Both the position numbers and the translations under genes were made by a program. Source: Tolypothrix carrinoi HA7290-LM1 (GTDB taxonomy: Bacteria; Cyanobacteriota; Cyanobacteriia; Cyanobacteriales; Nostocaceae). From it: a stretch of DNA of 56,240 nt. The stretch is taken from the NCBI GenBank assembly GCA_019358935.1, contig JAHHIK010000054.1, forward strand, positions 1 to 56,240, read 5' to 3'. The notes under the pieces are model-generated. The model did no database searches. It saw only the letters and a program-made list of their open reading frames with translations, and was not told where the DNA came from. This document shows, piece by piece, positions 1 through 1,828 of the stretch. Numbering within the stretch: position 1 is the first letter of the stretch; the number at the start of each line of letters is the position of its first letter.

Positions 1-134
1 GGAGTGAAAAATCAACCCTGAAAGCTATCGCAAAGTGCAAAATTCCAGATTCCAATTTTACGACCCAAATAGACCTTGCGATCGCAGCTTAATTTCCGCA
101 CCTTTTTTATGGTGACCTGTACTAAGTGAAAGAT

Positions 135-462
135 TGCCATCGACCATAACCGCCTATGTTGAGGTGAACTCAGCAAAGCACGTATGGTCGATGTGGAACC
201 AACTGAATAAACAGATCAAACGTTCCGGTGAAATAAATCGCAGACACGATTACTTTACCGTTTCTAACTGGAGTTTCCTAGCCAACCTCGAAACCGAGGA
301 AGCGTAAGCACTAGGAAAGAACGCTTTCACTTACACCGTGGAGTGAGGTATGGACAAATTATCTAGCTAGTGGTAGTTCTGTCCACACATTTAGAAGCGG
401 TAGTTGGCATGGGAATTACTTAAGAGACCCGATGAATAAATTTCTTATCTAGTCATCAGGAG
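135..462 (+). ncRNA. Candidate highly structured RNA / 5' leader upstream of TerB-like gene (family not recognised)
   Basis: Consecutive stems: 138-148/183-193 (11-bp perfect) with inner 157-163/169-175; 195-199/222-226; 226-232/254-260 with inner 236-240/247-251; 274-281/311-318 enclosing two small hairpins; 325-334/338-348; 351-363/372-385; long-range 256-267/391-402; 431-435/453-457 directly before SD AGGAG (458-462). Confidence 0.55.
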
Positions 463-467
463 TAAAC

Positions 468-950
468 ATGGCTACTGACAATGCAGGTTTGTTGTGGTTA
501 TTAAAAGAAAAATACACTTTTAGCAAAGTTCCAAGCCCTGAAGCTTATGATGGTTACTTGAAGTCTGTTCTCATTTGTGCTAACGGAGACGGTAAATTGG
601 CTCCAGAAGAGAGAGACTGGGTTGTTGGGTTTGCTTGTGCCTATGGCGCATCAGATTCATTAGTCGAGGAACTCAAATCTTACGAAGCTACAGAAGATAT
701 TGAGAAGGTTATTTCTGTAGCTGTGGAATCAGATGGTTCGCGGCGTTATCTTGTTTACGAGGCTATTAAAGCTTGCAGTGCTGATGGGGAATATAGCGAT
801 CCAGAAAGGGCAACTGTAGCAAAAATGGCAGCTAAACTGGGCATTTCTTGTGATGTCGTCAAACAAATTGAAGAAATCTGTATGGAAGAAGCCAAACTAC
901 GGGAGAAAAGACTGGCTTTGATGTATCCGGAGGGACCACCTATCTTCTAG
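468..950 (+). CDS. TerB-like (tellurite-resistance TerB fold) protein
   Basis: Two TerB-type motifs (ANGDGKLAPEER; SADGEYSDPER) and KLGIS end motif; SD AGGAG 5 nt before ATG. Confidence 0.7.
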   Translation: MATDNAGLLWLLKEKYTFSKVPSPEAYDGYLKSVLICANGDGKLAPEERDWVVGFACAYGASDSLVEELKSYEATEDIEKVISVAVESDGSRRYLVYEAIKACSADGEYSDPERATVAKMAAKLGISCDVVKQIEEICMEEAKLREKRLALMYPEGPPIF

Positions 951-990
951 CCGTTTTTTTAACCTTCTTGTGGTTGAGTAAAAATCAAGG

Positions 991-1326
991 CTAAAGAATG
1001 TACAATTTAGCCAAAAACGGTCTTAACCCATTATTCAACACAGCGATCGCAATTCCCCCCACACCAATCACGAGAAGCACCCACATCGGGACCGGCGGCT
1101 TTGAGAACTTCGCGGGTCGTTCCAAATAAACTATAAAGAGAGGAACTTCGCTTCAAAGTACCAAACCCTGGTCAACTTCCAAAGGTTATACAGCAATGCG
1201 CGTTACCAATTCCACATAAAGCGACCAAGCGGCTTTCTTTTGTGTGGTGTCAACTTTCCAAGCCATCGAACCAATGCCAAAAGGCAGACTTACAGATACA
1301 GTTTCTAAGGAAACGCGATCGCGCAT
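991..1326 (-). pseudogene. Pseudogene of a conserved hypothetical protein (copy 1)
   Basis: Manual translation MRDRVSLETVSVSLPFGIGSMAWKVDTTQKKAAWSLYVELVTRIAV*PLEVDQG, then frameshifted SSLYSLFGTTREVLKAAGPDVGASRD and GGIAIAVLNNGLRPFLAK; premature TAA at 1186-1188. Confidence 0.7.
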
Positions 1327-1330
1327 ATTT
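1058..1330. repeat. 273-bp direct repeat, copy 1 (copy 2 at 3037-3309)
   Basis: Identical to 3037-3309 by eye except 5 substitutions at 1238, 1239, 1242, 1247, 1248. Confidence 0.92.
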
Positions 1331-1489
1331 CTAGTAAGCAAATTTAACTAAATTATTTAGGTTTATTATAGTAAAATTGCTCATCATAGCTGCAAAATCA
1401 GCCTTAAATCATATTGTCGCAGCAACGGGCGCGATCGCACCTTGGATTGATCAATGATAACGCGATCGCGCATTTGGTAAAATTTCAAC

Positions 1490-1828
1490 ATGGAAGTTCA
1501 ACCAAAAGAAATCAGGAATTATTTAAGATTTGATGGTATAGATATTTTTTATGAGTGGTTTGATTCTCTGCGGGATAGAAAAGCAAAAGCTAAAATTAGA
1601 GCAAGGCTTGACCGAGTAGAGGAGGGTAATTTAGGTGATTGTAAATCAGTTGGTGATGGTGTTTTTGAACTCAGAATAGACTATGGTTCTGGCTACCGCA
1701 TATACTTTGGGCAGGAAGGGTCAACAATTATTATTCTTTTGTGTGGTGGCGATAAAAGCACTCAAGATAAAGATATTGCTAAAGCCAAGAAATATTGGAA
1801 AGACTATAGGAGTAGAGATGATGCCTAA
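1490..1828 (+). CDS. Type II toxin, RelE/ParE superfamily (addiction module killer, HigB-like)
   Basis: ARLDRVEEGNLGDCKSVGDGVFELRIDYGSGYRIYF...LLCGGDKSTQDKDI signature. Confidence 0.9.
   Translation: MEVQPKEIRNYLRFDGIDIFYEWFDSLRDRKAKAKIRARLDRVEEGNLGDCKSVGDGVFELRIDYGSGYRIYFGQEGSTIIILLCGGDKSTQDKDIAKAKKYWKDYRSRDDA

Follow-up and report, generated by a model that had tools for sequence, protein, structure and literature searches.

IS607-family transposons are defined, in the accessible text of PMC6188088, by GG cores and by the lack of inverted repeats and of target duplication. The omega-RNAs of this family overlap the right end of the element, end in CGG and carry a pseudoknot (accessible parts of 10.1101/2023.08.09.552727 and 10.1101/2023.11.20.567912). 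Clade RIIIr-4 of TnpB is defined, in the portion of PMC10691335 available, by the loss of the zinc finger and by an Asp-to-His change. One ortholog labelled RIIIr-4 (ortholog 39) yields a 466-nt processed RNA and is given as inactive in the TAM screen in the accessible part of PMC10278001. No description of the cyanobacterial branch treated here, or of its RNA, was found in the literature covered, from which subscription papers are mostly absent; the supplements of PMC10691335 (per-branch downstream alignments) may include it.

The window is the whole analysed stretch of 56,240 nt (contig JAHHIK010000054.1 of Tolypothrix carrinoi HA7290-LM1). Its positions 123-400 (+ strand) are the right part of an IS607-family transposon, i.e. 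the 3′ end of tnpB and a right end at GG 399-400. From left to right, the element consists of a left end, a small ORF divergent from the next gene, tnpB and a right end. Three roles coincide in the stretch folded at about 140-400: it is coding sequence of tnpB up to 307, the right end of the transposon and a covarying RNA structure. An apparently non-autonomous IS607 element has inserted at GG, 67 nt 5′ of the start codon of a terB-like gene, and it is highly probable that the fold is the omega-RNA scaffold of its TnpB.

This system resembles ISXfa1 and CboIStron, as these are described in the accessible text, by tnpA located 5′ of tnpB in autonomous relatives, a GG core and the absence of inverted repeats and duplication, and also by an RNA lying over tnpB and the right end, a scaffold end in CGG and a predicted pairing of a loop with the last bases. 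Unlike both, as far as that text describes them, it has a TnpB of about 486 aa without zinc finger, and no intron. The scaffold as delimited by covariation has about 260 nt, versus 144 nt in ISXfa1 (10.1101/2023.08.09.552727, accessible part). The likely pseudoknot loop lies about 65 nt from the end; a single hairpin follows it and a multi-helix domain of about 190 nt precedes it, whereas the available text of the ISXfa1 and CboIStron papers places this loop in the first of three stem-loops. By analogy with these two elements, the RNA would be an omega-RNA and a guide would follow position 400. The RAGATH-18 reRNA of IS607 TnpB is likewise a conserved RNA downstream of tnpB (PMC11061315, accessible text), but neither the region nor six homologous loci match Rfam's RAGATH-18 meaningfully.

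The sequence 274-403 recurs 15 times in the strain's own assembly, with 99-100% identity and every copy at a contig end. All 16 right ends of the genome diverge directly past GG 399-400 (+ strand), and their downstream flanks are unrelated. The 16 left ends all begin with GG+G and also lie at contig ends. GG is found at both ends (16/16 left and 16/16 right junctions), and a contig carrying the empty site starts at GG 399. The ends of the own-genome copies are not complementary, and a terminal inverted repeat is absent. As regards target duplication, flank matches for k = 3, 4, 5, 6 and 8 number 3, 3, 0, 1 and 0 of 16, versus 6, 2, 1, 0 and 0 in the control. Both ends share a 7-nt motif, in direct and inverted form, which is a putative transposase-binding repeat. 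In the left flanks of the own-genome copies, only GG is fixed; position -3 is G (8), C (4) or A (4) and never T, and position -4 is A in 10/16.

The element is recently active. Intact sister copies are suggested by the contig ends together with run X1. The assembly, whose smallest contig has 10,054 bp, was found to contain neither the middle of the element or an intact tnpB of this family, nor the left junction of the terB-adjacent copy. A search of the same assembly for the left flank of the empty site gave only a chance match with 2 mismatches, the control giving 2 matches. No copy number is derived from the read depths in run X1 (16,121 for the element versus 516 for the terB contig).

A scan of genome_contigs confirmed 182 of 224 candidate stretches; 80 loci were kept, and those with an organism given are from cyanobacteria. 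A right end is recognisable in 73 of these loci (7 have none), which were reduced to 51 at 93% identity. Among the 73 homologous ends, 70 finish with AGCGG, and conservation is lost past the +1 base. In relatives, the same tnpB is directly preceded by a gene for the IS607 transposase, a serine recombinase with N-terminal HTH (NF033518, 204 and 216 bits for a cut-off of 110, in L041 and L046). Of 54 relatives' loci with 1.5 kb of upstream flank, 19 carry tnpA, 10 a small left-end ORF, 25 neither and none both. The own-genome copies appear to be non-autonomous, since their left end is the end of an ORF of about 60 aa divergent from tnpB and not of tnpA; elsewhere, the genome has 7 matches to IS607 tnpA over the cut-off.

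The ORF of about 60 aa (L038:1520-1702, - strand; 16 own-genome left ends) matches no Pfam or NCBIfam family and belongs to cyanobacterial Atlas clusters (0.96). Judged by eye, its product may resemble a ribbon-helix-helix protein. Homologues of this ORF are also found beside other TnpB types (contigs C105 and C85 of G000), and the ORF is also present at C7 and C50. In L092, L094 and L104 (about 1050-1475), an ORF of about 129 aa lies directly 5′ of tnpB and no tnpA was found; it is possibly a cargo or accessory gene.

The copy adjacent to terB is truncated: an IS630 insertion at TA cut its tnpB at codon 426. Positions 1-122 (+ strand) are the right end of an IS630-family element, and 1-126 are found again at 3 other contig ends and inside contig C89 of G000. 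The target dinucleotide TA is at 123-124 (+ strand), in tnpB codon Leu426; TA also flanks both ends of the C89 copy. The latter is a full copy of 1254 bp (L178:210-1463), whose transposase matches NF033545 with 173 bits (cut-off 100). In the contigs of intact copies (runs X1 and X2), tnpB extends further upstream, beyond 122. Two ORFs of 99 and 305 aa overlap in the IS630 copy of C89, which would fit a frameshifted transposase.

The gene downstream of the right end (468-950, + strand) encodes a TerB-like protein of 160 aa and is a bystander of the insertion. Its match to Pfam TerB is below the cut-off (E 0.0011); it belongs to an Atlas TerB-family cluster (0.96). The segment 401-467 (+ strand) is the native 5′ region of terB, including the Shine-Dalgarno sequence; it has no conserved structure (z +0.14), and in 9 terB orthologue loci only the AT-rich last 35 nt or so align. 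Metagenome X2, which is independent of X1, the possible source run, contains a contig that covers 399-1034 with 3 differences; before 399 it has foreign DNA, and it represents the empty site. In another contig of X2, 122-401 shows no difference, tnpB continues upstream and the downstream flank is a different one. RNA runs X11 and X15 gave few contigs, of low depth and from related organisms.

These data bear on the original prediction, in which the fold was the leader of the terB-like gene. A leader that serves this gene alone and regulates it in cis, as a riboswitch or an antiterminator, would fit a strong fold lying directly 5′ of terB on the same strand and matching no Rfam family. It is refuted by the empty-site allele in X2 and by the lack of linkage: the terB-like gene is found in 0/80 homologous element loci, and the element in 0/14 terB-like loci and 0/9 close orthologue loci. 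In addition, the sequence is the end of a transposon present in many copies, with 16 differing flanks; a transposon end is what the prediction itself had named as its refutation. The last stem, said to end exactly at the Shine-Dalgarno sequence, is at chance level (z +0.14, with 109/200 shuffles as good) and is not kept in the 9 terB orthologue loci. No terminator-like site was found in window 1-1100. A dedicated leader is hardly conceivable in view of these results, and a transposon end is not to be curated as a cyanobacterial riboswitch.

The element could also be a relic turned into a promoter or leader of terB in this strain, altering its expression by read-through or by loss of the native promoter. 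That it inserted only 67 nt ahead of the terB start codon, in the same orientation and with no terminator-like site between, is compatible with this; the lack of a + strand sigma-70-like site in 1-1100 is not in its favour. Over 122-401 there are 0 differences from an intact copy, and a close strain has the empty allele, which indicates that the insertion is recent and shows no trace of adaptation. Any effect on terB would moreover be a side effect and not the reason for the fold. Such a role is very improbable as an explanation.

As regards the fold itself, 135-467 has a predicted energy of -103.3 kcal/mol (z -4.66) and is more stable than all 100 dinucleotide shuffles, as had been anticipated. 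The signal comes from 138-401 (z -6.41), with 138-193 alone at z -6.05; 402-467 is at chance (z +0.14). The stems of the original prediction exist where it placed them: the perfect 11-bp stem 138-148/183-193, the GUGAA hairpin 157-163/169-175, and 274-281/311-318, 286-290/295-299, 302-303/308-309, 226-230/256-260 and 256-267/391-402. The last of these, a 12-bp long-range helix, is not kept in homologues: it is 77.8% paired, 214/500 shuffles match this value and a single pair shows two-sided changes. Alternative folds had been proposed for 256-260; covariation favours only the partner 226-230, so that one fold is left. The region had also been described as having no ORF. It contains an ORF of 57 aa (134-307), and the frame open from 122 encodes the C-terminus of TnpB.

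That the region matches no Rfam family holds for window 1-1500 at E ≤ 10, where the only 3 matches are weak, lie outside the region and are far below the gathering score; six homologous loci searched at E ≤ 1 gave one weak match, also far below it. G-U mismatches had been taken as a sign of a + strand RNA. The + strand is supported by the alternation of G-U, A-U and G-C pairs among homologues and by the orientation of tnpB; the energy of the single sequence gives no strand, the minus strand of 135-467 also folding strongly (z -4.21). A conserved, covarying + strand RNA without Rfam family is retained from the original prediction; its cis-regulatory, antitermination or leader function is not.

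The alignment comprises 51 ends, from the window and 50 loci (A2 does not include L072, which has too little flank). It provides the homologues and the covariation on which the prediction had made its case depend: most helices in 140-345 show compensatory changes. The codon test used 41 intact frames, 10/51 sequences having none. Synonymous identity is at least 0.9 for 10/30 scorable codons in 421-480, versus 1/253 before codon 420. Synonymous sites freeze from about codon 428, which sets the start of nucleotide-level constraint near window 128-140.

Compensatory branches were counted by parsimony, in a tree-aware manner, over 26,577 column pairs. The top pairs are 141-190 (10 branches), 163-169 (8), 161-171 (7), and 140-191, 162-170, 229-257 and 277-315 (6 each). 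A model of 50 pairs is 90.8% paired, with two-sided changes in 34 pairs; 0/500 shuffles reach this, and slid controls give 31-46%. This statistic leans towards the model, which was chosen partly from the same alignment. The tree-aware counts give the same helices and are the safer figure, given that choice and the non-independence of related sequences. A covarying RNA structure under selection, belonging to no Rfam family, extends from about 140 to 400.

All its parts are on the + strand. The 5′ domain (140-191), which overlaps the coding sequence, is a stem 140-148/183-191 with an internal loop and up to 10 compensatory branches per pair. Its inner parts, supported by pair counts, are 154-155/177-178 and the hairpin 157-163/169-175 with its GUGAA loop; pair 159-173, for instance, is UG in 21, UA in 15 and CG in 13 of the 51 sequences. 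The next part (226-273) consists of the helix 226-230/256-260, whose 5/5 pairs show two-sided changes (6, 5, 3, 3 and 2 compensatory branches), and the hairpin 261-264/270-273. A three-way junction (274-318), lying over the tnpB stop codon, is formed by 274-281/311-318, 286-290/295-299 and 302-303/308-309; compensatory branches number 6 for 277-315 and 3 each for 278-314 and 303-308, and the inner hairpin 286-299 is variable, poorly aligned and 73-77% paired. The short hairpin 330-343 has covarying closing bases (330-343: CG 37, GC 10; 4 compensatory branches), and its loop, 335-339, is likely to form a pseudoknot with 397-401. The 3′ terminal hairpin (346-392) varies in length and carries the 7-nt motif shared with the left end. 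It is supported by mononucleotide shuffles (37/51 segments at z ≤ -2, median -2.76), but the copy in the window is not significant by itself (z -1.82).

The loop 335-339 probably pairs with the terminal bases of the scaffold as a pseudoknot. The pairing 335-339/397-401 is 94.1% paired, with one two-sided change each at 337-399 and 339-397; this covariation amounts to one sequence per pair, plus locus L105, which agrees by eye. An invariant alternative partner of 397-401, at 149-153, is 92.9% paired and shows no covariation either way. The +1 base after GG (window position 401) is T in 14/16 own copies and in 57/73 relatives, and A335 is present in 50/51 sequences. T at +1 may pair with the near-invariant A335 and so lengthen the pseudoknot, in which case RNA folding would shape the choice of target; a preference of the transposase is the alternative.

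The protein encoded over this structure is represented in the window by the C-terminal 61 codons and the stop codon of a tnpB-like gene (122-307, + strand; residues 426-486), the 5′ part being cut off. By tblastn, the frame 122-304/307 shares 72-80% identity with the C-termini of three TnpB-like proteins of 486-510 aa. Pfam and NCBIfam gave only sub-threshold TnpB matches for the homologous proteins, and the search of A1 against solved structures by sequence gave only Cas-phi3 (E 0.21). An AlphaFold2 model of a full-length homologue (pLDDT 88.9) has Cas12f as its best Foldseek match (E 5e-9), TnpB 8iaz and Fanzor2 being lower. The likeness is that of a TnpB-family fold (best structures e.g. 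8j3r and 7wju; TM 0.36-0.46). Cas12f also has a long guide RNA with 5′ stems ahead of the pseudoknot. Unlike Cas12f, the present protein is encoded by a transposon and shares 12-14% identity with it; an inspection of the loci, which was not systematic, showed no CRISPR array.

RuvC residues are conserved among 41 close homologues: D283 (41/41), E342 (41/41) and D412 (40/41), the last of which starts helix 411-423 of the model. The wider family (A3) is a set of 77 sequences, i.e. 5 loci and 72 of 150 matches chosen for being near full length. None of the 77 has a CxxC between RuvC-II and RuvC-III, a segment of 20-21 aa. Residue 412 (RuvC-III) is H in 44, D in 16, G in 13 and A in 4 of them. One subgroup of A3 (31 rows; SH-aLRT 99 in a quick tree that is unrooted for H/D) has D, G or A and never H at RuvC-III, which suggests a repeated change or loss at this site.

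RIIIr-4, as defined in the accessible text of PMC10691335, shares with this family the absence of a C4 zinc finger (0/77) and, in 44/77 of its wider members, the His. Further likenesses are the length of the protein and that of the RNA, which overlaps the ORF (466 nt in ortholog 39; PMC10278001, accessible part). The close homologues differ from RIIIr-4 by Asp at RuvC-III (40/41), i.e. by a D-E-D triad (PMC10691335, same limit). The branch thus has the zinc-finger loss of RIIIr-4 and not its His, a motif-based placement made without a tree of reference sequences. Since Asp is kept where RIIIr-4 has His, this TnpB, which lacks the zinc finger and has a D-E-D triad, may be active as a nuclease.

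If the fold is the omega-RNA scaffold, the omega-RNA (reRNA) would be cut out of a read-through transcript of tnpB and bound by TnpB. Pairing of loop 335-339 with the terminal GCGG, as a pseudoknot, would close the scaffold. A guide of about 16-20 nt, copied from the host flank, would then follow. In the window, this predicted guide would be host DNA at 401-420 (+ strand), with a length taken by analogy from ISXfa1 (accessible part of 10.1101/2023.08.09.552727); conservation is lost after +1. The TnpB-RNA complex would cut empty donor sites beside the GG-ending motif, and cutting would bring the element back, as a copy, once a serine transposase provided in trans has excised it without leaving a scar. 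The terB-adjacent copy can no longer provide its own TnpB. Its RNA, if transcribed, could load the TnpB of sister copies, 122-401 being identical to an intact copy.

Points counted against the scaffold reading are the inactivity of the RIIIr-4 ortholog in the TAM screen, as given in the accessible text of PMC10278001, and the covariation of the pseudoknot, which comes from one sequence per pair and L105, with 149-153 as an equally well paired rival partner. The first of these would also suit a structure that serves the element otherwise, either as a DNA end for the transposase or as an mRNA-stability or translation element of tnpB, with an unguided nuclease. The 3′ hairpin does carry the motif common to the left end, and 17/77 wider relatives have G or A in place of D412. 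Against this, G-U pairs alternate with Watson-Crick pairs on the + strand only, and the IS607 intermediate is double-stranded, with ends that have short repeated motifs (PMC6188088, 10.1101/2023.11.20.567912; accessible parts). Constraint here extends 260 nt inward, and the bases just ahead of the flank are complementary to a loop. A structure without guide function is improbable on these grounds.

Under the omega-RNA scaffold reading, a scaffold defined by covariation, exact ends and target statistics would be available for a recently active element, which would make a direct activity test of a zinc-finger-less D-E-D TnpB easy. A zinc-finger-less, RIIIr-4-like TnpB with catalytic Asp, an undescribed scaffold of about 260 nt and a target requiring little beyond a GG end could be demonstrably active; this is put forward tentatively from sequence features, as something possible rather than expected. 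If true, it would add an active nuclease to a major TnpB group for which Nety et al. list one ortholog, without cleavage (PMC10278001, accessible part). Guide scaffolds of IS607 TnpB are already known; a long scaffold absent from Rfam and a D-E-D TnpB without zinc finger would be of mild interest.

Other features lie further downstream in the window. Positions 1490-2114 contain a pair of genes resembling an addiction module, in which Gp49/DUF891 (E 5.6e-9) precedes an HI1420-like antidote (E 0.004). On the minus strand, at 2150-2587, lies a gene of the 23S rRNA intervening-sequence type (four-helix bundle); it is flanked by short tandem heptamer repeats at 2115-2150, 2572-2600 and 2732-2763.
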